Positions 9,612-37,319 of a DNA stretch of 64,000 bases are shown here, piece by piece. Position numbers and translations under genes: made by a program. Source of the stretch: Minisyncoccota bacterium (GTDB lineage: Bacteria; Patescibacteriota; Minisyncoccia; UBA6257; XYB1-36-10); contig JBAZJH010000002.1 in assembly GCA_041651415.1 (NCBI GenBank), positions 111,075 through 175,074 of the forward strand, read 5' to 3'. Below the pieces are notes generated by a model. The model searched no databases, was not told the DNA's origin, and saw only the letters and a list, made by a program, of their open reading frames with translations. The stretch's first letter is position 1. Every line of letters begins with the position of its first letter.

Positions 9612-10976
9612 ATGGATCTCGAAAAGATTTGGGAAACAGTTTTGGCAGAAATGGAAATAAATATTTCTCACGCTAATTTTCATACTTGGCTAAAAAACAG
9701 CAAATTAATCAATAAAGACGAATCAGGAAACTTCGTGGTAGCTTTGCCAACTAATTTTTCCAAAGAGTGGGTGGAAAATAAATATCAAAAGAATATTTTA
9801 CATATTTTGAGAGATTTAGACAGCCAGGCCAAAAAAATAGATTTTGTGGTACAGGGAAATATATTTAATTCAAACCAAAATCAGAAAACTTCAAAGGGAA
9901 GTTTCAGCCCAATTCCAGCACAAATGGCTTTTCCAGAGTTTAAAGTGGACCCGGAAACAAATCTAAATCCAAAATACACTTTTCAAAATTTTATAGTCGG
10001 TTCATCAAATGAACTGGCTTTTGCCGCAGCGCAGGCAATAGTCAAAGAAGTGGGGTCAAAATATAATCCATTGTTTTTTTACGGGGGAGTGGGTTTGGGA
10101 AAAACCCATTTAATTCAAGCAATCGGCAATGAAATAATAAAAGATTATAAAAACAGTCTGAAAGTAAGATATGTGACTTCAGAAAAATTTACCAATGACG
10201 TGGTTTGGGCAATAAAAAACAAGAGAATGGAGGATATAAAGAAAAAATACAGAGATATAGACATTTTAATAATAGACGATATCCAGTTTATAAGCGGAAA
10301 AGAAAAAACACAGGAAGAATTTTTTCATACCTTTAATTCTTTATACGCTTTAAATAAACAAATAATCATATCTTCAGACAGACCACCGCATGCTTTACCA
10401 ACACTTCATGAAAGATTAAGGTCAAGGTTTGAAGGAGGAATGACGGTTGATATAATTCAACCCGATTATGAGATGAGAGTGGCGATAATAAGCACAAAAT
10501 TACAAGAGTGCAAACATGAATTACCCAATAAAATAATAGGGATAATAGCCGGAAAAGTAAGTGAAAATATAAGAGAAATAGAAGGTTTATTAAATAAACT
10601 TATTTTTATAAAGGAAAATAAAGGGGTAGAAATAGATGAAGGGATAATAAACGAGGTAATAAATAAAAATACGCAAGTAAATAAAAATATAAACCCGAAT
10701 AAAATAATAAAAGCAGTGGCAGATTTTTTTGAAATTTCCATAAATGAATTAATAGGAAAATCAAGAAAAAAAGAGATTGTGGAACCGAGACAAATAACAA
10801 TGTTTTTACTTCGAAACATATTAAACACATCTTTTCCTTTTATTGGGGATAAGATGGGGAAGAGAGACCACACAACTGTGATGCATGCCTGTGAAAAAAT
10901 AAACAAAGAAATGGAAAAAAATATCAATACCAGCCAGAAAGTTAATTTAATAAAAGAGTCGATATATAAAAGTTAA
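9612..10976 (+). CDS. dnaA: chromosomal replication initiator protein DnaA
   Basis: Walker A GGVGLGKTHL, AAA+ core and a C-terminal DNA-binding domain; followed by dnaN. Confidence 0.95.
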   Translation: MDLEKIWETVLAEMEINISHANFHTWLKNSKLINKDESGNFVVALPTNFSKEWVENKYQKNILHILRDLDSQAKKIDFVVQGNIFNSNQNQKTSKGSFSPIPAQMAFPEFKVDPETNLNPKYTFQNFIVGSSNELAFAAAQAIVKEVGSKYNPLFFYGGVGLGKTHLIQAIGNEIIKDYKNSLKVRYVTSEKFTNDVVWAIKNKRMEDIKKKYRDIDILIIDDIQFISGKEKTQEEFFHTFNSLYALNKQIIISSDRPPHALPTLHERLRSRFEGGMTVDIIQPDYEMRVAIISTKLQECKHELPNKIIGIIAGKVSENIREIEGLLNKLIFIKENKGVEIDEGIINEVINKNTQVNKNINPNKIIKAVADFFEISINELIGKSRKKEIVEPRQITMFLLRNILNTSFPFIGDKMGKRDHTTVMHACEKINKEMEKNINTSQKVNLIKESIYKS

Positions 10977-19322: not shown

Positions 19323-20084
19323 ATGATAATTTATCGATTAAAATCGAAAAATGTAGTTTATGACCTTTATTTGCCGGAAGAAAGTAATGGTAAGGCGGTT
19401 TTGTATGTACCAGGTTTACCTGGGCATCCTCGCCGAAAAGCTTTAGGAGAAACATTTGCCTCAAATGGTTTTAGCTTCTTTGAGATGAGATTTCCAGGCA
19501 GTTGGGAAAGTAACGGCGAATTTACGATGGATAACTGCGTCAAAAGCTTAGAAGAAGCTTATGACTTTATAAAAAGCGGTTTGGGAACAGAACTGCGAAG
19601 AGAGATAAAAAAAGAATGGGAACACAAAGAGATAATATTTTTAGGCAGCAGTTTCGGAGGCGGAGTAATCTTAAGCAGCCAAATTAAAGAGCCGCTTAAA
19701 TTCGCACTTCTGGCTCCGGTGACTAAAATAAAAAACGTAAAAGATTCTTTAGTAATGCTTTCTTCTGGCGAGGACGATTTATTTAACTTACTTACTAAAG
19801 GATACGCTAATGCATATAGAGGACTTAATAAAAAAGATTGGAATAGATTTTTGGACGGGGAATCACTAATTAATCCCGAGAAAAACACAGATAACCTAAA
19901 AAATAAAAAATTGCTGTTTTTACAAGGGACGGATGATGATGTAATTTTTGACAAACATACTTCCGAATACGTAAATAATCTTAAAAAAGCGGGAGTTGAA
20001 GTTGAGTTTATATTAATTTCGGGAGCCGGACACGGAGGGGACTTAGAGGAAAAAGCAGCGCAAACTTTGGTAGATAGTCTTTAA
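19323..20084 (+). CDS. alpha/beta-hydrolase fold protein (dienelactone hydrolase / S9 peptidase-like)
   Basis: Nucleophile elbow GSSFGGG, with later GTDDDV and GAGHG motifs. Confidence 0.55.
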   Translation: MIIYRLKSKNVVYDLYLPEESNGKAVLYVPGLPGHPRRKALGETFASNGFSFFEMRFPGSWESNGEFTMDNCVKSLEEAYDFIKSGLGTELRREIKKEWEHKEIIFLGSSFGGGVILSSQIKEPLKFALLAPVTKIKNVKDSLVMLSSGEDDLFNLLTKGYANAYRGLNKKDWNRFLDGESLINPEKNTDNLKNKKLLFLQGTDDDVIFDKHTSEYVNNLKKAGVEVEFILISGAGHGGDLEEKAAQTLVDSL

Positions 20085-20134
20085 TTAAACAAAAAACCAC
20101 GTGAAGTTTTTAGAAATACTTCACGTGGATATAT

Positions 20135-20890
20135 TTAAGAAAAGAAACGACATTTCTTGTTTTCGGATACTTGCTGACGCATTAAACTGTAAACTTGTTC
20201 GTGAATAGCGAGACATTGTTGCAGAAAATTCAGGGTATCTTTACTTGATGACGGGACAGTCCATTCGGTTAGAAGTTCTTGGAGAAATTCTAATTCTTTG
20301 GGAGAAAAATCGTATAAATATTTAGCTGCTTGGCTAAAAATTTCCGATTCCTCTTGGATCAAACTTCCTTGGGACATTAGAAGATCTTTAAGAACAACGA
20401 TAGTTCTTTTTCTGGTTTGCCTAATCTCTTTTTCGGAAATTGGTTCTATCTTAAAGATGAGATTGCGGAGTTGAAAAGTGTACTGCTGGACTTTTTGGAG
20501 CAAGCTTAACTGGAGGTGATAGTCTGATGGGCCGTTAACGACATCAAAAATATTTTTACCAAACAGGGTTTCGGCTTGTCTCAGATGGCAGACAAAGAAT
20601 GAACCGCAAGTATGGATTGAAAAGTAATCGGCATTGGTGGGTATTTCCTCAAGATAGATGAGATGAAGGTGAATCGGCAGTTCAAACATCCTTAAATCTA
20701 TAACAAGTTCTCGAAGTTTAAGACAGTCCCCTGAACTCTTTTTCTTTAGAATGATAATCAGATCAACATCCTGCGGAATTAAGTGAGGATTAAACAATAG
20801 AGAGCCATGAAGAAGAACGCAGACTATGTTATTAGTTCCAAAAGTAGAGACGATTTTTTCGCTAAGCTTTTTTAAGGATTCTCTACTCAT
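20135..20890 (-). CDS. nucleotidyltransferase-fold protein (pol-beta/ANT-like minimal NTase) with a C-terminal helical domain
   Basis: LLHGSLLFNPHLIPQDVDLIII matches the G-S-x(9-13)-DxD NTase signature; overlaps the upstream gene by TAATG (translationally coupled). Confidence 0.5.
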   Translation of the reverse strand: MSRESLKKLSEKIVSTFGTNNIVCVLLHGSLLFNPHLIPQDVDLIIILKKKSSGDCLKLRELVIDLRMFELPIHLHLIYLEEIPTNADYFSIHTCGSFFVCHLRQAETLFGKNIFDVVNGPSDYHLQLSLLQKVQQYTFQLRNLIFKIEPISEKEIRQTRKRTIVVLKDLLMSQGSLIQEESEIFSQAAKYLYDFSPKELEFLQELLTEWTVPSSSKDTLNFLQQCLAIHEQVYSLMRQQVSENKKCRFFS

Positions 20891-22041
20891 TAGATACTCC
20901 TTTCTATTAGTAAGCTTTGGTATGGAGATAACGAAACAGAAGTTTCTCGACGGAGGTTGGTAATGAGTTCATTAATCAGATTCCCATCCATAGTATTTAT
21001 TATTTTAGGGAAAGATAAAATATCATCTATGGGGCGGCTGATTAACGCTTTATTGTCTGAAGCTTTAAGTGCCCAGAAAATAAAATTGGAATTTACGATT
21101 ACTTCTTTCTGATTCCATTTTAATCCACTAGCGACCAAGAGTTTAGTAGGCAGTCGGCCGTATCGATCAACGAGTTCTTTGAGATTATTAATGTTTGGAT
21201 GTTGCGACTCATCACTTTCAAATTTTACAAAAGGCGTGACGATGACAGTTGTGTCTTTCAAATTTGCAAATAGCTTCTGGGAGATTCCCAATGACCAAAC
21301 TAGAGGTTTAAACGAACGATTGCTGATAACGACTGCTGACGGATAAAATCCATCTTCAATCAAGGAACAAAAGAGCAGGGACCAACAAAAGTCTGTATCC
21401 AACTGCCAAGTTTTACCGAATAGTGATATTCGGCGATCACCTTTCTTTTTTCTGGAGATTAATAGTGGATAGTTAAAATCTTTCCGTAGCTTCTCAATTT
21501 CTTTTAAATAGAACAGTGGGAGCACGTTAAGATTAGTTTTTTTGAAGTTGCTTTTTAATATCAGACAAGCTTCATCTTTTGGTTCAAGCGGCATGTCACA
21601 TAAAGCACAAAACGCTTTTTCATTTTTCCAATATAGAACTTTGTAATCCATCGACCAATCAGAATGGAGAGAATCTTTCAACACTTCAACGGCTCCGCAT
21701 TGACAGATAAAAATTTGTGAATTTTCGACTTTTAACTCTCCATCAGTAGCCAGTTTTTCACAATAGGTTTGCAGGCGATTGGCGTGACTGTTGTTGTTAT
21801 CAAACCAGTAATGGTTGATAGTTGAATCCAGACGATATAAGAGTTTCTGGAAGTTCTCAAATCTTTGGGCGATTTGATTAATTTCCAAATTTTTATATCG
21901 ATGACCGGTTAGGTTTACACAGCATACTGATGCGAGACCAGTGAGCTTCGATATTGCAGAAACCACAAAAGGAGTCAGAACAAGTCCGGTTTTTACTTTT
22001 TCTGGAATTGTTATTGGTAAACACAGGATGGAGTTTTTCAC
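20890..22041 (-). CDS. hypothetical 383-aa Cys/Trp-rich protein (possible zinc site CQCG...CALC), middle gene of a 3-gene operon
   Basis: Long ORF with RBS AGTGAGGTG upstream; amino-acid composition unlike the Lys/Glu-rich host proteins. Confidence 0.45.
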   Translation of the reverse strand: MKNSILCLPITIPEKVKTGLVLTPFVVSAISKLTGLASVCCVNLTGHRYKNLEINQIAQRFENFQKLLYRLDSTINHYWFDNNNSHANRLQTYCEKLATDGELKVENSQIFICQCGAVEVLKDSLHSDWSMDYKVLYWKNEKAFCALCDMPLEPKDEACLILKSNFKKTNLNVLPLFYLKEIEKLRKDFNYPLLISRKKKGDRRISLFGKTWQLDTDFCWSLLFCSLIEDGFYPSAVVISNRSFKPLVWSLGISQKLFANLKDTTVIVTPFVKFESDESQHPNINNLKELVDRYGRLPTKLLVASGLKWNQKEVIVNSNFIFWALKASDNKALISRPIDDILSFPKIINTMDGNLINELITNLRRETSVSLSPYQSLLIERSI

Positions 22042-22050
22042 TTTAACACC

Positions 22051-22746
22051 TCACTTTCTTTGTAATAGTTCTTCTGCTTTACGGACAGCAATTTCTGTTG
22101 CTAGTAAAGCATTATTTGATTGGATAAATAAGGCAACAAAAGAACCGAAAAAAGTATCTCCGGCTCCCAGAGTGTCTTTAGCTTCAATGGGATTGCTTTT
22201 AACAAAGTCTTGTCTTCCATGATGCCAAATTTCTACTCCTTTTTGACCGTGAGTGATAAGCAAAATACGAGACTGAAAAAGTTTAATAACTTTTTTTGGT
22301 ACGTATTTTGATTCTCTTTGGTTGACTTTAAGAGCGACGACATTCTTTAAATCTTTAGGACAACAATCCCAAAAATGGACAAGATTTTCTCCTTTGACTC
22401 GGATGTATCCTTGAGCGTCTAGAAAAATACAACAATCTCTTTCAGATAATTGCTCAAGATTGAATTCTCCCAGTATAGGTGAGAGTAAAATGTTTCGTGA
22501 AAATAAACGTTTTGGGAGCATTATTTTCCCGACTCTTTTAATCCGTATTTTTTCATGTTGGTCTTTGATAATTATGTGTACAGTTACCGGATTTTTAGGT
22601 GTTAGAAGACAGACTTTACAGCCAAGTGCATTTAAGGCTTCTTTGCAATAAAGGGCTGGACCTCCTGACCTAACCAATTTAACAGCTTTATCTAGATTGT
22701 TGATGTGATCCACAGTTTTTGTTGCTATGAGAGTTATAGATTTCAT
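22051..22746 (-). CDS. PfkB-family carbohydrate/nucleoside kinase (short, 231 aa)
   Basis: N-terminal GGPALY and C-terminal PfkB signature DTLGAGDTFFGSF. Confidence 0.7.
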   Translation of the reverse strand: MKSITLIATKTVDHINNLDKAVKLVRSGGPALYCKEALNALGCKVCLLTPKNPVTVHIIIKDQHEKIRIKRVGKIMLPKRLFSRNILLSPILGEFNLEQLSERDCCIFLDAQGYIRVKGENLVHFWDCCPKDLKNVVALKVNQRESKYVPKKVIKLFQSRILLITHGQKGVEIWHHGRQDFVKSNPIEAKDTLGAGDTFFGSFVALFIQSNNALLATEIAVRKAEELLQRK

Positions 22747-22996
22747 TTTTAGCTCCTTTTCAGCTATTTTTAGTTGTAAATTTTGCTACTTGTAAGATAT
22801 AATTTTTATTGTTTTTTGTCAATTTCTGGTGGTTTTCAGGGAGTACTGCACTTGTTATATTTTAGCTCTAAAATAGACACAAACCATTATCAGCTTCTCA
22901 TGACAAATCCCAATATTTGCTGTCGGGGCGATTCTTTTGCAGTTGACACAAGGCTGGAGTTTTTTATTTTTATGCGGAGTAGGATATTATTTTTAA

Positions 22997-23578
22997 ATGG
23001 CGGTTTTGATAAATGAGATATTTCCGAATCCGGCGGGGAAGGATGCGGACGGAGAATTTATTGAAATTTTTAACAACGGAAGCGAGACGATTTTTTTGGA
23101 CAGCTTCAGATTAGAAGACGAAAGCGGGAAGAAGTTTAGTTTAGCGGGAAAGAAAATCGACGGCGGAGAATATCTGGCGTTTAGTTATAAGGAAACGGGA
23201 ATATCAATAAACAATTCGGATGAGAAGATTTTTTTATACGACGGGAATAATTTAGCGGACAAGGCGGAGATGGAAGGAATGGCGGAAGAAGGAAGCAGTT
23301 TTTCAAGAAAAGGAGAAGAGTTTTTATTTACAAGCCAAATAACCAAGGGAGAAAGAAATCTTTTTGACGAAGAAAAGGTTTCGGGATATCTTCAGGGGGA
23401 AGCTTTAAAGAGTTCCGTAAAAACCGGAAATTTTGAGGCGAGAGATGTTATGGCGATTTTAATTATGGGAGTTTTAGCGGGACTGATAGCGGTTTACGCT
23501 TATAGTTTAATTTTTAAGAAAGAAAAAAATGAAGAAAATAAAGAAGGTTATTTTGAATGGCGAGGAGGAGACGATTAA
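22997..23578 (+). CDS. lamin-tail-domain (LTD) protein with a C-terminal TM anchor
   Basis: LINEIFPNPAGKDADGEFIEIFNNGSETIFLDSFRLED matches the LTD consensus (INE..pNP.g.D..EfIEL.N...); hydrophobic helix near the C-terminus. Confidence 0.6.
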   Translation: MAVLINEIFPNPAGKDADGEFIEIFNNGSETIFLDSFRLEDESGKKFSLAGKKIDGGEYLAFSYKETGISINNSDEKIFLYDGNNLADKAEMEGMAEEGSSFSRKGEEFLFTSQITKGERNLFDEEKVSGYLQGEALKSSVKTGNFEARDVMAILIMGVLAGLIAVYAYSLIFKKEKNEENKEGYFEWRGGDD

Positions 23579-24375: not shown

Positions 24376-24816
24376 ATGATGACTTTTCTTAATAAAGAGG
24401 AGCAACAAATTTTTAATCATTATGAAACTGCGAAATATATCTTCACTTTTAAGGGATTATCCTCTGGACTTCATGAAGAATTGAGATTGTTTTTAACTGG
24501 AGAAAGAATGAGAAGAGTGGGGAGATTTAGCATGATTTTGTTCTTAATAAGAATAGAAGAACAAAATAAATTAAGCTCTGAAAGAATAAATAATTTATGG
24601 GGAAAATTCTTGAGGGGTGAACAAGAGACAGAACCGTCTTGTTGGAAAAAGGGGAGTTGCGGCGCGCCAACTCAGGTTTGTGATGCTGATGTTATGTATC
24701 ATGGAAAAAGGGATGTTGATGCTTTTGGGTGGAGTGGCGCCACCAACTGGATTGACTTAAAAAGGGCGGTTTCTGGCGATTACTTTAGTGATTATGTCTT
24801 TAATTATGATACTTGA
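24376..24816 (+). CDS. hypothetical protein (146 aa)
   Basis: ORF with its own promoter and a downstream terminator (24826-24855); no recognizable domain. Confidence 0.45.
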   Translation: MMTFLNKEEQQIFNHYETAKYIFTFKGLSSGLHEELRLFLTGERMRRVGRFSMILFLIRIEEQNKLSSERINNLWGKFLRGEQETEPSCWKKGSCGAPTQVCDADVMYHGKRDVDAFGWSGATNWIDLKRAVSGDYFSDYVFNYDT

Positions 24817-32188: not shown

Positions 32189-32314
32189 TTATTAAATCTC
32201 CGCTTCAAACTTCGCGCGCTATCTTAAGGGGTTTGAAGCGGTAAAGATTTAATAAACCCACGCCTAGGGCGGGGTGAAACTTGAAGAAACCACGGCCGTA
32301 AGGCCGTGGAGTTT
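32189..32314 (-). repeat. copy B of the ~125-bp MITE/REP-like repeat (inverted orientation), abutting the ileS stop codon
   Basis: Reverse complement matches AAACTCCACGGCCTTACGGCCGTGG...CACCCCGCCCTAGGCGTGGGTTTATTAAATCTTT...GAGATTTAATAAA. Confidence 0.7.
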
Positions 32315-35300
32315 TATTTTAGAGAAACAGAGATTTCGCCGAAGTTTTCAAAAGGGGAGGTTTTATTGATTCTTTGAGTATTAGCTTTTGAATAAAAGAT
32401 TTTTTTAAGGGAGCAGGCGGAACAGATTTCTTTTTCTTTGGCAGAAAAAATAGAGGAAAGATTTTCGGGAGCGGATTCAATATAAAGATTAACAAGCTCA
32501 CCAGGCTTTAAGTCGGCTTCACCGCGGAGAGATTGAATAAGGCGGATGAATTCACGAACGAGGCCTTCGGATTTCAATTCGGGAGTGATATTCAAATCAA
32601 GCCAAACTTCTTTTTTGTCAGGAAGATTATTTTCGAAAGATACTTTTTTAACGTTGACTTCGTCTTTTAGAATTTCGAGAAGATTGGCGGATATTTTTTC
32701 CGCTGATTTTATTTTCATTTCAGAAAGAGGCTGACGGACTTTGATGCCTAAAGCAGAGCGTTCGGCAAGGCCGAGGCTGGACCAATCTTTTACAAGAGTC
32801 ATTTCTTTTAAAAGCTTTTCGTTAAATTTTTCAGCTTTTGGCCAAGAAGAAAGATGAACGGAATTTTTGAAACCGGATTCTTTTTTAAGGGAATTAAGGG
32901 AGAGATAAAGATAGTCGGAAAAGAAAGGCGCAAAAGGAGCCATAATTTTACTTAGGGCGAGGAGAGAATTATAAAGGGCAAAAGAAGCGTCAAGGCGGTC
33001 CCGACCGAAACGTCGGGACAAATTGCCTGAAGCGATTTGAAACCTTGAGCGGGAACGGCGGATAAACCAGCGGGAGATATCGCTTAAAAGTTCTTCAATT
33101 TTTCTGCCAGCCGGAGGAATGTCATATTTTTCAATAAGTTCTTCCGTTTCTTTTATGGTTTTAGAGACGCGGGAAGTGAGCCATAAATCCAGAGGATTAG
33201 TGAATTTTTTTACTGACCCAGAAAGAGAGCCGTAAGTTTTCAAATAAAGAAGGCAATTTTTGACGATATTAAAAACATTAAGCGAGACTTTTTTTAGGTC
33301 GTCCTCGTTAAAATTTTTAGTTTCACCAGCGTCGTTTAAAGTGAAAAGATACCAGCGGACAGAATCGGCGCCGTATTTATCAAACATTTCCCAAGGGTCG
33401 ACGATATTGCCGCGGGACTTGGACATTTTTTTGCCGTTTTTGTCGTTGATCAAGCCAAGAGAAATGACGTTTTTATAAGGAGCGCCTTTTTCAAGAAGGG
33501 TGGAGATGGCAAGAAGAGTGTAGAACCAGCCGCGGGTTTGATCCATAGCTTCCGAAATATAGTCGGCAGGGAAAATTTTTTTCTTATCAATCAGGTCCTT
33601 ATTTTTGAAAGGATAACCAGAGGCGGCAAAAGGCATAGCGCCGGAATCAAACCAGACGTCGACAAGTTCCGGAATTCTTTTCATTTTTTCGCCGCAAGAA
33701 CAAGGAATTTTGATTTCATCGATAAAAGGGCGGTGCGGGTCAAGAAATCCGTCGTCGTTTAAAGGAATATTTTTAAAAGGCAGAGGTTTCCATTCGGCAT
33801 TTTTCAGAAAAAAATCTTTAACTTTAAGATTGTTTCCGCTTAAAGATTCCGCGAGAACGCGAAGAGGGTCTTCGTGCCCGACGATGAGAATATTTTTGCC
33901 GTCATATTTTTTGTCGATTTCTTTCAGAGCTTTCATTATTCTTTTTCTGACTTGATTCAGATTTTCTCCGTTTGCCGGGGACTGCTCGTATTTTTCTTTA
34001 AAAGAAGAAAAAAGCTTTTTGTAAGAAGAAGCGGATTTTTCATTTAATTCTCCAAAATCGGTTTCGCGAAGACGTCTGTCAAAAATTAAAGTTTTTATTT
34101 TCAGGGATTTTTTGATAATTTCGGCGGTTTCTTTGGCTCTTTTTAAGTCAGAAGAAAAAATAATATCGATATTCAACTTCTTTAATTTTTCGGCGGATTT
34201 TTCAACTTGAAGACGGCCTTTTTTAGTAAGAGAATTGGCTGTTTTTTCAGGCCAAGAGGAATTGAATTTGTTTTTATTAGAAAGAGCTTCGCCGTGGCGG
34301 ATGGCAAAAAAAGAGTTTTTTGAAGGAAGGGGAGAATCGGCGAGCTCTTTTAAAGAGCTGATTATTTTTTCTTGTCCGCATTTATGGCATTGCCAGATGG
34401 GAAGAGGTGTGCCCCAATATCTTTCTCTTGAGAGCGCCCAATCTTTGATGTCTTTCAGCCATTCGCCAAAACGGCCTTCTTTGATGTGAAAAGGAATCCA
34501 GTTGATTTTTTCGTTATTTTTTAAGAGAGCGTCTTTTAAAGAAGACATTTTAATAAACCAAGAGGAGCGGGCGAAATAAATGACCGGAGTGTCGCAGCGC
34601 CAGCAGAAAGGATAGTCGTGCTCGTAAAGATTTTCCGACAAAAAGAAATTATTTTTTTTCAAATAAGCAATTATTTTTTCTTCGGTTTCTTTTGATTTAA
34701 CGAAAAGGCCGGACAGTTCCGGAACAAAATCTTTAAAGTGACCGGACTCGTCGACGGTATGAACTTCGGGGAGACCGACTTCTTGGCCGAGGCGATAATC
34801 ATCTTCGCCATACATAACGGCGGTGTGGACGACGCCGGTGCCGTCAGTCGTTGTGACAAAATCGGCGGGATAAACCTGATAAGATTTTTCTGATTGCAAT
34901 TCTTTTATTTTGAAAAGAGGTTCGTATTTTAAGCCAACCAAGTCGGCGCCGGAAAATTCTCTAATTTTTTCTCCAGTAAAAATATTTTTATCAGAAAGAG
35001 GAGAAGCAATAAAGGCTTCTTCGCCATCAACAGACTTTAAAAGCGAATACTTTATTTTTTTTCCGACAGCTAAGGCGACGTTTCCGGGAAGAGTCCAAGG
35101 AGTGGTGGTCCAAGATAAAATAAAAGTTTTATTGCCGATTCTAAAGTCGCCGATTTTTTGGCCGGGAAGGAGCTTAAACTTCAAAAAAACAGAATTGTCT
35201 TTAACGATTTTATAACCTTGGGCAAGTTCGTGGCTGGAAAGACCGGTGCCGCAGCGAGGGCACCAGGGAATTATTTTGTGTCCTTGATAGAGAAGATTTT

Positions 35301-35823
35301 TTTTATAAATTTCCGAAAGAAGCCACCAAACGCTTTCAATATATTCTGGCTTGTAGGTGATATAAGGATTTTCAGTATCAAGCCAAAAACCCATTCTGCT
35401 TGTGAGATTTTCCCAGAGTTCTTTATATTGCCAAACGGAAGCGCGGCATTTTTCGTTGAATTTTTTTATGCTTTCCGTTTTATCTTTCGGAACCAGATTT
35501 TCAATCTCTTTTTTGCTTTTCAAACCGAGTTCTTTTTCAACCTGGAGTTCAACCGGAAGGCCGTGTGTGTCCCAGCCGGCTCGGCGGGGAACATTGAATC
35601 CGCGCATATTTTTGTAGCGGCAAATGATGTCTTTATAAGAACGGGCTAAGACATGATGAAGACCGGGTTTGCCATTTGCGGTCGGGGGACCTTCGTAAAA
35701 AACGAAGGTTTTGTTTTTGGCGTTTTGTTTAAGGGATTTTTCAAAGATTTTTTCTCTTTCCCATTTAGCGAGGATTTCTTTTTCAAGTTCGGGCAGGCTT
35801 TTATTTTTTTTTTCTTCCGACAT
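32314..35823 (-). CDS. ileS: isoleucyl-tRNA synthetase (type 2) with a ~170-aa histidine-phosphatase (PGAM-like) domain inserted at about aa 500-670
   Basis: HIGH-type PGLHHV, KMSKS, CP1 editing domain, zinc-knuckle halves WQCHKCG ... IPCSCGEKM. Between them: AIRHGEALSN (RHG motif), RETDFGEL, ILIVGHEDPL - a histidine phosphatase superfamily fold. Confidence 0.9.
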   Translation of the reverse strand: MSEEKKNKSLPELEKEILAKWEREKIFEKSLKQNAKNKTFVFYEGPPTANGKPGLHHVLARSYKDIICRYKNMRGFNVPRRAGWDTHGLPVELQVEKELGLKSKKEIENLVPKDKTESIKKFNEKCRASVWQYKELWENLTSRMGFWLDTENPYITYKPEYIESVWWLLSEIYKKNLLYQGHKIIPWCPRCGTGLSSHELAQGYKIVKDNSVFLKFKLLPGQKIGDFRIGNKTFILSWTTTPWTLPGNVALAVGKKIKYSLLKSVDGEEAFIASPLSDKNIFTGEKIREFSGADLVGLKYEPLFKIKELQSEKSYQVYPADFVTTTDGTGVVHTAVMYGEDDYRLGQEVGLPEVHTVDESGHFKDFVPELSGLFVKSKETEEKIIAYLKKNNFFLSENLYEHDYPFCWRCDTPVIYFARSSWFIKMSSLKDALLKNNEKINWIPFHIKEGRFGEWLKDIKDWALSRERYWGTPLPIWQCHKCGQEKIISSLKELADSPLPSKNSFFAIRHGEALSNKNKFNSSWPEKTANSLTKKGRLQVEKSAEKLKKLNIDIIFSSDLKRAKETAEIIKKSLKIKTLIFDRRLRETDFGELNEKSASSYKKLFSSFKEKYEQSPANGENLNQVRKRIMKALKEIDKKYDGKNILIVGHEDPLRVLAESLSGNNLKVKDFFLKNAEWKPLPFKNIPLNDDGFLDPHRPFIDEIKIPCSCGEKMKRIPELVDVWFDSGAMPFAASGYPFKNKDLIDKKKIFPADYISEAMDQTRGWFYTLLAISTLLEKGAPYKNVISLGLINDKNGKKMSKSRGNIVDPWEMFDKYGADSVRWYLFTLNDAGETKNFNEDDLKKVSLNVFNIVKNCLLYLKTYGSLSGSVKKFTNPLDLWLTSRVSKTIKETEELIEKYDIPPAGRKIEELLSDISRWFIRRSRSRFQIASGNLSRRFGRDRLDASFALYNSLLALSKIMAPFAPFFSDYLYLSLNSLKKESGFKNSVHLSSWPKAEKFNEKLLKEMTLVKDWSSLGLAERSALGIKVRQPLSEMKIKSAEKISANLLEILKDEVNVKKVSFENNLPDKKEVWLDLNITPELKSEGLVREFIRLIQSLRGEADLKPGELVNLYIESAPENLSSIFSAKEKEICSACSLKKIFYSKANTQRINKTSPFENFGEISVSLK

Positions 35824-36941: not shown

Positions 36942-37319
36942 GGGGATGTAAGGAATCGACGATTTAAGGACGGTAGAAATGGCAGGCAGGATTGAAGATC
37001 CTCAAAATCTTCAAAAAAGAAAAGTGCCAACTTTAATAGGCAGCCAGCTTTTGCTTTTGCTTAAGCTTGGAAGCCGTCTTTTATAGGCGGCCGCTCACTC
37101 TTTCTTTTTGCCTGAAGAGGTAAGAGGAGCGAAAAAAAATTCAGGCTTTTCCGACTCTTTTCTCGGTTTTATGGGAAGGAGAAAAAATAAAAGCCGAACA
37201 AACAGAATTTTCTGACGCGCTTCAAGTTTTGTTTGTAAAAAAAAGAGCGCGCCTAAGCCATGTAGAAATTTTTATCAGTCGTAAATCGGACATGGGTTCA
37301 AATCCCATCATCTCCACCA
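36942..37319 (+). ncRNA. ssrA: tmRNA (SsrA); predicted tag reading frame ...ANFNRQPAFAFA*
   Basis: 5' GGGGATGTAAGGAATCGACG and 3' tRNA-like end GGACATGGGTTCAAATCCCATCATCTCCACCA; internal ORF gcc aac ttt aat agg cag cca gct ttt gct ttt gct taa; directly downstream of smpB. Confidence 0.8.

Follow-up and report, generated by a model that had tools for sequence, protein, structure and literature searches.

The 64,000-nt stretch of DNA analyzed here (the window; contig JBAZJH010000002.1, positions 111,075 to 175,074, of the Minisyncoccota bacterium assembly GCA_041651415.1) carries a minus-strand cassette of about 2.6 kb (20135-22746). The middle gene of this cassette (20890-22041, minus strand, GTG start) encodes a 383-aa protein which, judging from its predicted structure, is a class Ia aminoacyl-tRNA-synthetase-fold protein derived from methionyl-tRNA synthetase (MetRS), and which is not a translational MetRS. 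The gene stands between those of a PfkB/ribokinase-family kinase (22051-22746, minus strand, 231 aa) and of a two-domain nucleotidyltransferase (NTase) of the Pol-beta superfamily (20135-20890, minus strand, 251 aa), and the resulting operon faces the convergent gene of an α/β-fold serine hydrolase (19323-20084, plus strand, 253 aa, Peptidase_S9/DLH-like). The MetRS-like protein, the NTase and the serine hydrolase form the core of a module, to which the kinase is a frequent add-on. We tentatively propose, as a reading that is quite possible if short of probable, that the module makes or remodels a ribose-phosphate- or nucleotide-conjugated small molecule, in which process the NTase would perform the nucleotidyl activation and the rebuilt MetRS pocket would bind or transfer the product.

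In the original prediction, made from the letters of the window without database searches, the coordinates of the three minus-strand open reading frames (ORFs) were exact and a cysteine metal site was proposed for the middle protein, which agrees with the four-cysteine zinc knuckle (C113, C115, C145, C148) described below; the statement that this protein belongs to no recognizable family was superseded by Foldseek and profile comparisons. With the AlphaFold2 model (pLDDT 87, pTM 0.87) as a query against the PDB, 48 of the best 50 Foldseek matches were MetRS and two were the LeuRS of M. mobile (3ziu), the MetRS matches reaching E 2e-13 at best, with a probability of 1.0, TMq of 0.54-0.70 and sequence identity of 9-14%. 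A profile built from 68 diverse members of the family matched MetRS in 12 of 13 cases among the PDB sequences (best E 6.6e-4), and the broad alignment (A2) was paired by hhalign with E. coli MetG over 293 collinear columns (E 4.3e-4, probability 34%); the probability given to the alignment of the narrow clade (A1) with the same protein was 0.3%. Searches with the single sequence and with the narrow-clade profile detected nothing in Pfam, NCBIfam, PADLOC and the PDB sequences, and neither the MetRS-like protein nor the NTase matched any entry of PHROGs. The first search for relatives yielded 37 clusters, all of about 384 aa and labeled Minisyncoccia or Parcubacteria, and with the exhaustive search by hidden Markov models (HMMs) the family grew to 289 representative clusters (50% identity), almost all of them 340-400 aa long; when the broad alignment was used in a word-indexed protein search, hardly anything but the clade of the window was retrieved. 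Some members of the family are rich in Arg and Ala, which suggests that they come from high-GC hosts.

Compared with bacterial type-1 MetRS (S. aureus 7wpx, M. smegmatis 2x1l, T. thermophilus 1a8h, A. aeolicus 2csx), the predicted protein retains the Rossmann core with the connective peptide (CP) insertion, a single Cys4 zinc knuckle followed by the β-α-α-β-α stem-contact fold, and collinear remnants of the ISR, W-L-D-x-x-x-x-Y/W and YG..xR.hL motifs. The cysteines of the knuckle (CxC...CxxC) are invariant in the clade and 97% conserved in the wider family, and the first part of the knuckle was aligned by HMMER with the CxxC of the T. thermophilus enzyme; LLxSR and W-LDTDFCWS are further motifs invariant in the clade. 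The differences from type-1 MetRS, apart from the 9-14% identity, concern the catalytic signatures, the anticodon bundle (at most about 55 residues) and the genetic setting, that of a horizontally moving accessory gene with an NTase and a hydrolase as linked partners. In place of the HIGH signature stands [K/x]-x-G-[L/F/x], which contains no histidine, and the KMSKS loop has degenerated and varies among members: among the 68 diverse members used for motif counts, neither HxGH at any position nor a KMSKS-like pattern was found even once, and no segment of the protein is less conserved than the KMSKS-equivalent loop (about residues 275-287; relative entropy 0.66 vs. the mean of 1.27). On the basis of the alignments and the model topology, HIGH would correspond to K17-T-G19-L20 (only the Gly kept), ISR, which includes R233 of E. 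coli MetRS, to S196-R197, WLDAPIGY to QLDTDFCW (D215 invariant, W220 94%), HG[YF] to T-P270-F, KMSKS to the variable loop at about 275-281, and YGxDxLRYYL to RYGRLPTKLL; the Asp of the GTDEHG motif appears to be replaced, in an alignment uncertain by 1-2 residues at this point. In the model, strand β1 occupies residues 2-11 and helix α1 residues 18-34, and a β-α-α-β-α unit is formed by residues 271-329, which we take to be the stem-contact fold of class I synthetases. Beyond its end, at about residue 329, at most about 55 residues remain, as against about 150 aa in the anticodon-binding domain of MetRS, and no match to Anticodon_1 of Pfam was found in the protein, unlike in the IleRS of the window; by the model, the anticodon-binding bundle is essentially gone.

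These losses bear directly on the simplest reading of the middle gene, namely that it is the organism's own reduced methionyl-tRNA synthetase and that its neighbors are unrelated to it. MetRS is indeed the best structural match, and the proteins of Patescibacteria are known to be reduced. The reading is nevertheless effectively refuted, and we assign it a negligible probability, since HIGH and KMSKS are absent from 68 of 68 members and the anticodon domain is missing; moreover, the gene is rare (8 loci among the 185,579 species representatives of GTDB, all labeled as Patescibacteria-type metagenome-assembled genomes (MAGs)), its codon usage is foreign, and it is linked or fused to the NTase and hydrolase. 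At the same time, the protein has not simply decayed. Conservation peaks at the C-terminal ends of the Rossmann strands (T7/L8/P9, N43/G46, W79/D81, S240 and P270), at the start of the MetRS amino-acid-binding helix (D215, D217 and W220) and in the ISR motif (S196 and R197). Since the most conserved positions line the crevice, the crevice is constrained rather than decayed; it is still under selection and represents a rebuilt site, not that of a decaying pseudogene product.

The composition of the module was deduced from gene neighborhoods. The gene downstream of the operon and convergent with it, regarded in the original prediction as a host gene, proved to be a core partner, adjacent to the operon across the loci of the clade. 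Its product, the serine hydrolase, matches Peptidase_S9 of Pfam (E 1.7e-8, 34.7 bits vs. the cut-off of 22.6), and the triad is conserved in 11 orthologs (GSSFGG nucleophile elbow, Asp in the QGxxD motif, His of GHG). In the clade, the gene order is PfkB, MetRS-like, NTase and then the convergent hydrolase downstream, the hydrolase being convergent and adjacent in every locus that reaches that far and showing the highest identity of the four proteins (61-73%). Identities co-vary between the hydrolase and the other genes of the module (r 0.83-0.90; 0.88-0.90 with the MetRS-like protein and the NTase), as well as between PfkB and the MetRS-like gene (r 0.95). The MetRS-like, NTase and hydrolase genes occur together in 12 loci of the clade and in four of the six loci by which the context of distant relatives was assessed, in varying orders and orientations. 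In these four (L022-L025), the MetRS-like proteins are only about 20% identical to that of the window, and the HMMs of the clade recognized orthologous NTases (E 6e-8 to 5e-37) and hydrolases (E 6e-23 to 1e-36) beside them. Three independent fusions of a MetRS-like protein with an NTase, in the same order as in the operon, were found (P0041, P0047, P0072). In one more case (P0172), the MetRS-like domain is fused to an orotate/adenine-type phosphoribosyltransferase (PRTase), followed in the operon by genes of an NTase-like protein (NTP_transf_2, E 0.007), a kinase of the glycerate-kinase family and an S66 serine hydrolase. Judging from sequence similarity, all three activities, those of NTase, kinase and hydrolase, would be present in this operon, the last two provided by unrelated folds. 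The catalytic motifs of the kinase, the NTase and the hydrolase have all remained intact.

Other genes were also observed near the module. Genes of NUDIX hydrolases and Ham1p-like (ITPase) proteins, which serve nucleotide house-cleaning, recur in surroundings that otherwise have nothing in common, in L018 (161-613 and 2619-3182), L019 (4508-4978) and L022 (5870-6430 and 11495-12112); this may hint at non-canonical nucleotide metabolism or be a coincidence. In three loci, genuine class I synthetase genes are found a few kb or less from the module: L017 (10771-13035, a 754-aa tRNA-synt_1 protein), L021 (1268-4411, a 1047-aa IleRS-like protein) and L023 (3792-4739, tRNA-synt_1b); a functional link with them was rejected, as by a rough estimate chance alone would produce about this much proximity in small genomes.

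The NTase is similar in build to the aminoglycoside nucleotidyltransferases (ANTs) ANT(9), ANT(3'')(9)/AadA and ANT(4')/KNTase and to LinB, with which it has in common the length of about 250 aa, the Pol-beta domain followed by a helical bundle and the G-S...D-x-D motif. Its matches to sequence models are below the cut-offs (Polbeta of Pfam: E 5.8e-5, 23.6 bits vs. 26.9; ANT_9/ANT(9) of NCBIfam: E 0.035, 13.4 bits vs. 340), and, unlike in the ANT enzymes, it is always paired or fused with a MetRS-like protein, the NTase family (41 clusters) being encoded on the same contigs as the MetRS-like family. H28-G29-S30, D41-x-D43 and E82 are invariant in 27 NTase sequences, E82 presumably acting as the third carboxylate. 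In Foldseek comparisons, the AlphaFold2 model (pLDDT 89.8) was closest to AAD(9) (6xxq, E 8e-6), followed by ANT(3'')(9), AadA, ANT(4')/KNTase and LinB with E values up to 1e-3 (TMq 0.57-0.62); the ANT matches had a probability of 1.0 at about 10-14% identity. The earlier view of this protein as an ANT/KNTase-like two-domain enzyme was thus well founded with respect to both the fold and the invariant G-S...DxD motif. HalB (Hailong), TENT5 and MNT antitoxins appeared among the lower-ranked fold matches, and no tRNA NTases (CCA-adding enzymes, MenT, AbiEii) were found among the best 50. By its modeled fold, the NTase is closest to small-molecule O-nucleotidyltransferases rather than to NTases acting on tRNA or RNA.

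The kinship with aminoglycoside and lincosamide resistance enzymes brings up the possibility that the module is a resistance or detoxification cassette directed against a natural inhibitor of synthetases or some other antibiotic with hydroxyl groups, with the catalytically disabled MetRS-like protein serving as a decoy or binding protein and with the kinase, NTase and hydrolase inactivating the compound by phosphorylation, nucleotidylation and hydrolysis, respectively. These are the classical inactivation chemistries; furthermore, the variant operon encodes an S66 hydrolase, the family to which the microcin C immunity enzyme MccF belongs, and the distribution of the module is that of a horizontally moving accessory element. 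We consider this explanation very unlikely, though: the strict joint occurrence of three or four distinct enzymes, and their fusion, point to a sequential pathway and not to redundant inactivation, the PRTase fusion is hard to reconcile with it, and the match to the ANT(9) model is as poor as E 0.035. In addition, basic residues prevail among those conserved in the C-terminal domain of the NTase (K133, R142, K161, K168 and R238), in contrast to the acidic pockets that bind aminoglycosides.

The assignment of the first gene of the operon to PfkB-type kinases, already made in the original prediction, was confirmed by a Pfam match above the cut-off (PfkB, E 7e-8, 32.5 bits vs. 25.8), which covers the C-terminal half of the protein only, and by the GGPA, KVNxRE (NxxE) and DTLGAGD motifs conserved in nine orthologs. 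Sequence matches in the PDB were to ribokinases, myo-inositol kinase and adenosine kinase, and the best NCBIfam match was to ribokinase (TIGR02152, E 4e-10, 39.5 bits vs. the cut-off of 299.65); since every NCBIfam equivalog model scored far below its cut-off, no substrate subfamily was recognized. A PfkB homolog of the window type was not detected in L001, L016, L019 and L022-L025, and in L021 a different, full-length ribokinase-like PfkB follows the MetRS-like-NTase fusion. As PfkB is missing from several loci, it is an accessory part of the module, present in the clade of the window.

Taken together, these data describe a set of partner enzymes that are all of small-molecule type and apparently active, as judged by their motifs, in hydroxyl phosphorylation, nucleotidyl or phosphoribosyl transfer, and ester or amide hydrolysis; the kinases are nearest to ribokinase, and the PRTase to orotate and adenine PRTases. 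In the pathway that we tentatively propose, the substrate would be a small molecule bearing a ribose or sugar(-acid) hydroxyl, which becomes nucleotide-conjugated. The kinase would phosphorylate the hydroxyl, and the fused PRTase, of the type using phosphoribosyl pyrophosphate (PRPP), would supply an additional route to the ribose-5-phosphate moiety in one variant. The NTase would move a nucleoside monophosphate from the triphosphate onto the substrate. The MetRS-like protein, having no ATP activation of its own, would hold the nucleotide-conjugated intermediate in the rebuilt pocket, formerly the aminoacyl-AMP site, and would either hand it over to the NTase or perform the transfer step alone, similarly to the second half-reaction of a synthetase. 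Finally, the serine hydrolase would cut an ester or amide bond for release, maturation or recycling of the product. The NTase-like protein, kinase and S66 hydrolase of the P0172 operon, being putative non-homologous substitutes for the same three activities, count in favor of such a pathway. Pairs of kinase and nucleotidyltransferase of the HldE type are known, as is the salvage of NAD and FAD by a riboside kinase or PRTase followed by an adenylyltransferase. The likeness to the module is one of logic only, a ribokinase-family kinase (or PRTase) being combined with a nucleotidyltransferase; by analogy, it suggests phosphorylation with subsequent nucleotidyl activation. The known pathways employ HUP-class or GlmU-type NTases rather than Pol-beta ones and have no synthetase-like or hydrolase partner.

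Several considerations weigh against the pathway as proposed. The sequence links of the middle protein to MetRS are weak (hhalign probability of 34%, HMMER E of about 1e-3 to 1e-4), and it is upon these links and the modeled topology that the putative motif equivalences depend. The order in which the steps would follow one another and the part assigned to the MetRS-like protein are purely inferred, and the substrate and product are only proposed. Lacking HIGH, KMSKS and apparently the ribose-binding Asp, the MetRS-like protein might bind no nucleotide at all, and its role could be that of a scaffold without catalytic activity or of a subunit that binds RNA. NTases of the ANT type nucleotidylate hydroxyls and are not known to form the acyl-adenylates needed for a synthetase-like transfer. 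The kinase is dispensable in many loci, and therefore phosphorylation is not an obligatory step. Besides, some flanks contain genes of defense type, those for the S subunit of a type I restriction-modification (R-M) system, AbiEii, RelA/SpoT and a KAP NTPase.

A bolder version of the small-molecule pathway, which we hold to be decidedly doubtful, is that of a "split synthetase", in which the NTase would have taken over the nucleotide-dependent activation, the MetRS core devoid of motifs would keep only the transfer of the second half-reaction, and the hydrolase would edit or release the product. The target of the transfer would be a ribose hydroxyl of a small molecule or the 3' end of a tRNA. 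If true, this would be a previously unknown route to a compound of aminoacyl- or acyl-nucleotide type, and the product could be an antibiotic, a signal or a defense molecule, the capacity to make it being exchanged horizontally among the ultra-small Patescibacteria.

tRNA may also be supposed to be the substrate of the whole system, with the MetRS-like protein as a subunit that binds the 3' end and brings the tRNA to the NTase, by which it would be extended with nucleotides or repaired; the hydrolase would deacylate aminoacyl-tRNA, and the kinase would modify a ribose hydroxyl. The synthetase architecture, with the CP zinc knuckle and the stem-contact fold, is indeed retained except for the anticodon domain, while the signatures for ATP and the amino acid are all lost; fusion with an NTase would suit a substrate-presenting subunit, the MetRS-like protein has conserved basic residues (R197, R300, K312 and R364), and synthetase paralogs without an anticodon domain, such as GluQRS, still act on tRNA. 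It is just this domain, however, the main reader of tRNA-Met identity, that is missing, and the fold of the NTase is closest to small-molecule ANTs, with no tRNA-modifying NTases among the best 50 matches. The ribokinase-like PfkB, the kinase of the glycerate-kinase family and the orotate/adenine-type PRTase are likewise small-molecule enzymes, and no tRNA gene is linked to the module. Considering these facts, we regard a tRNA- or RNA-directed system as distinctly unlikely.

The cassette is compositionally foreign to the window, as had been supposed originally, and was compared with the rest of the window by tetranucleotide and codon statistics. Its tetranucleotide distance (0.346 vs. 0.211 ± 0.039) is the highest of all 2.6-kb stretches of the window, at a host-like G+C content (0.367 vs. 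0.372), and in synonymous codon usage its three genes are the least host-like ones (z = -3.4, -6.2 and -3.8 against the other minus-strand genes). The codon test was repeated on minus-strand genes only because the strand asymmetry of the window is very strong, and the deviation became stronger in this comparison, which rules out an artifact of the lagging strand. The asymmetry itself is seen in the third-position GC skew (+0.39 in plus-strand and -0.42 in minus-strand genes) and in the cumulative GC skew, which climbs monotonically over the entire window with no change of sign at dnaA (9612-10976). The cassette proteins, first described as rich in Leu, Ser, Asn, Trp and Cys, are enriched in Cys (z 4.6), then in Gln, His and Leu, and depleted in Glu, Gly and Ala; for Ser, Asn and Trp no enrichment was seen, and the content of Lys is hardly lower. 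An ORF at 24376-24816 (plus strand, 146 aa; Cys 2.1%, Trp 2.7%), in which no Pfam family exceeded the threshold, is the sole other Cys-rich one near the cassette and is absent from beside it in other loci.

In nine related loci, the G+C content of the cassette is 0.43-0.50 whether the flanks have 0.39-0.45 or 0.50-0.53, and in every one of them the tetranucleotide distance between cassette and flanks is about 1.4- to 2.8-fold above that of flank windows of the same size. No flanking gene is common to different loci, and the neighbors in the window (RuvB, the LTD protein and TsaE) never recur beside the cassette, so that a syntenic position conserved throughout the lineage was not found. The earlier suggestion of horizontal acquisition, likely in our view too, is supported by the cassette's own G+C content elsewhere and by the ever-changing flanks: the cassette deviates from its flanks in several genomes and these flanks are never conserved, and therefore the locus behaves as a horizontally mobile accessory module in Patescibacteria. 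Around the cassette, only short chance repeats and no adjacent tRNA gene were found in the search for mobile-element boundaries, and the phage, plasmid and IMG/VR searches returned no homologs. In one Minisyncoccia MAG (MFD03232 bin42), two non-identical partial copies of the module were observed at contig ends, overlapping in the MetRS-like/NTase part (L007, JBASTM010000023; L013, JBASTM010000009); they stem from paralogy, from heterogeneity among strains or from a repeated island at which the assembly broke.

Mobility, foreign composition and variable flanks would equally suit a nucleotide-based anti-phage defense or toxin system, a suggestion already present in the original prediction. In such a system, the NTase, together with the kinase or PRTase, would make a modified nucleotide or oligonucleotide acting as a signal or chain terminator, the MetRS-like protein would be the sensor or effector partner, and the hydrolase the effector or off-switch. 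In keeping with this, L004-L006 have as neighbors a LexA-methyltransferase fusion, Endonuclease VII, the S subunit of a type I R-M system and RelA/SpoT, AbiEii is found next to the module in L002, a KAP NTPase in L016 and a Fic protein with a transposase in L022, and HalB of Hailong is one of the lower-ranked fold matches of the NTase. On the other hand, the three operon proteins scanned (kinase, MetRS-like protein and NTase) matched no known defense-system model, no family of PADLOC-DB v2 being hit at E ≤ 1; homologs in phages, plasmids and IMG/VR are absent, no killing effector (nuclease, pore, TIR, SIR2) is recognizable, and the best matches of the NTase are antibiotic NTases, not CD-NTases or HalB. 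Furthermore, the flanks of many loci consist entirely of housekeeping genes (L19, pseudouridine synthase, GatCA, RF, PriA, Def, Fmt, aminoacyl-tRNA synthetases). Defense is thus considered rather unlikely as the function of the module.

Translational coupling of the three genes, as originally proposed, is borne out by their junctions. The stop codon of the MetRS-like gene and the start codon of the NTase gene overlap in TAATG, with a GGAG ribosome-binding site upstream, and a GAGGTG ribosome-binding site spans the PfkB stop codon 5 nt ahead of the GTG start of the MetRS-like gene. The non-coding region upstream of the operon (22747-22996, read here on the minus strand) is common to the operon and the divergent LTD-domain gene (22997-23578, plus strand) and includes the AGGAG ribosome-binding site of PfkB (22757-22753, 6 nt upstream of the ATG) as well as a sigma-70-like promoter candidate with 10 of 12 consensus positions (TTGACA 22822-22817, 17-nt spacer, TATCTT 22799-22794). 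The number of promoter-like sites in this region shows no excess over shuffles (10 found vs. 10.2 expected), for which reason the assignment of this promoter to the PfkB operon is only inferred. Between the convergent NTase and hydrolase genes lies an intrinsic-terminator hairpin (20097-20128) with a perfect 11-bp stem (20097-20107, CCACGTGAAGT; 20118-20128, ACTTCACGTGG) and a 10-nt loop, followed by a U-run on the minus-strand transcript and preceded by an A-run on the plus strand. The hairpin, predicted earlier, was also listed in the repeat scan (inverted repeat I3), and its reality follows from the fold energy: dG is -19.6 kcal/mol (z = -6.7), and none of 200 shuffles was equally stable. 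The consensus terminator scan did not detect it because its loop has 10 nt. An intergenic hairpin occurs at the equivalent position in all 11 related loci checked (dG -16.6 to -25.3), with stems of differing sequence, and is therefore a conserved terminator.

Two further features of the window are unrelated to the cassette. A gene at 32314-35823 (minus strand) encodes a 1169-aa IleRS-like class I synthetase (tRNA-synt_1, 1.4e-115; Anticodon_1; DUF5915), whose catalytic-domain match is split by a histidine-phosphatase-superfamily domain (His_Phos_1, 1.2e-34) inserted at aa 507-678, which is unusual for a synthetase. A tmRNA gene with the short tag peptide GRSLFLFA is predicted at 36942-37319 (plus strand).

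A MetRS paralog outside translation has a precedent in the cupin-associated one, which keeps the adenylation residues, possesses a double Zn-ribbon of the archaeo-eukaryotic type, shows an invariable linkage with a cupin and a lysine N6-monooxygenase and occurs in Actinobacteria, Proteobacteria and Firmicutes (PMC2922099); it has since been recognized as the MetRS-like domain found in hydrazine synthetases (PMC8664883, PMC12376268). The resemblance lies in a MetRS-derived domain used for non-translational small-molecule chemistry in a conserved operon or fusion. Identity of the two was rejected, since the family described here has lost the adenylation motifs and has an NTase and a hydrolase as its partners; neither a cupin nor a lysine N6-monooxygenase was found in the about 20 loci examined. 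The cysteine ligase MshC and GluQRS/YadB likewise have a class I core without a functional anticodon-binding domain and are used outside translation (PMC2922099). The family described here differs from them in that it cannot activate an amino acid in the canonical way. MshC and GluQRS keep ATP binding of the HIGH/KMSKS type and activate their own amino acid. Accordingly, the MetRS-like family is classified as a synthetase paralog recruited to a non-translational pathway, which is a known kind; new and unusual in it is the loss of both class I signatures together with the obligatory coupling to an NTase. A description of the triad of synthetase-like protein, Pol-beta NTase and hydrolase was not found in the open-access full-text literature.

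Metabolic synthetase paralogs, such as MshC, GluQRS, cyclodipeptide synthases and hydrazine synthetases, have each revealed a new chemistry, and, to our knowledge, every known paralog of this sort from class I keeps the ATP-binding signatures. The MetRS-like family thus offers a testable case of how the site of a class I synthetase functions once nucleotide activation has been outsourced. Patescibacteria are thought to have almost no biosynthetic capacity, and the module marks an accessory pathway exchanged horizontally among them. Because these organisms biosynthesize so little, their few mobile enzyme modules probably matter for the interaction with hosts, phages or competitors.

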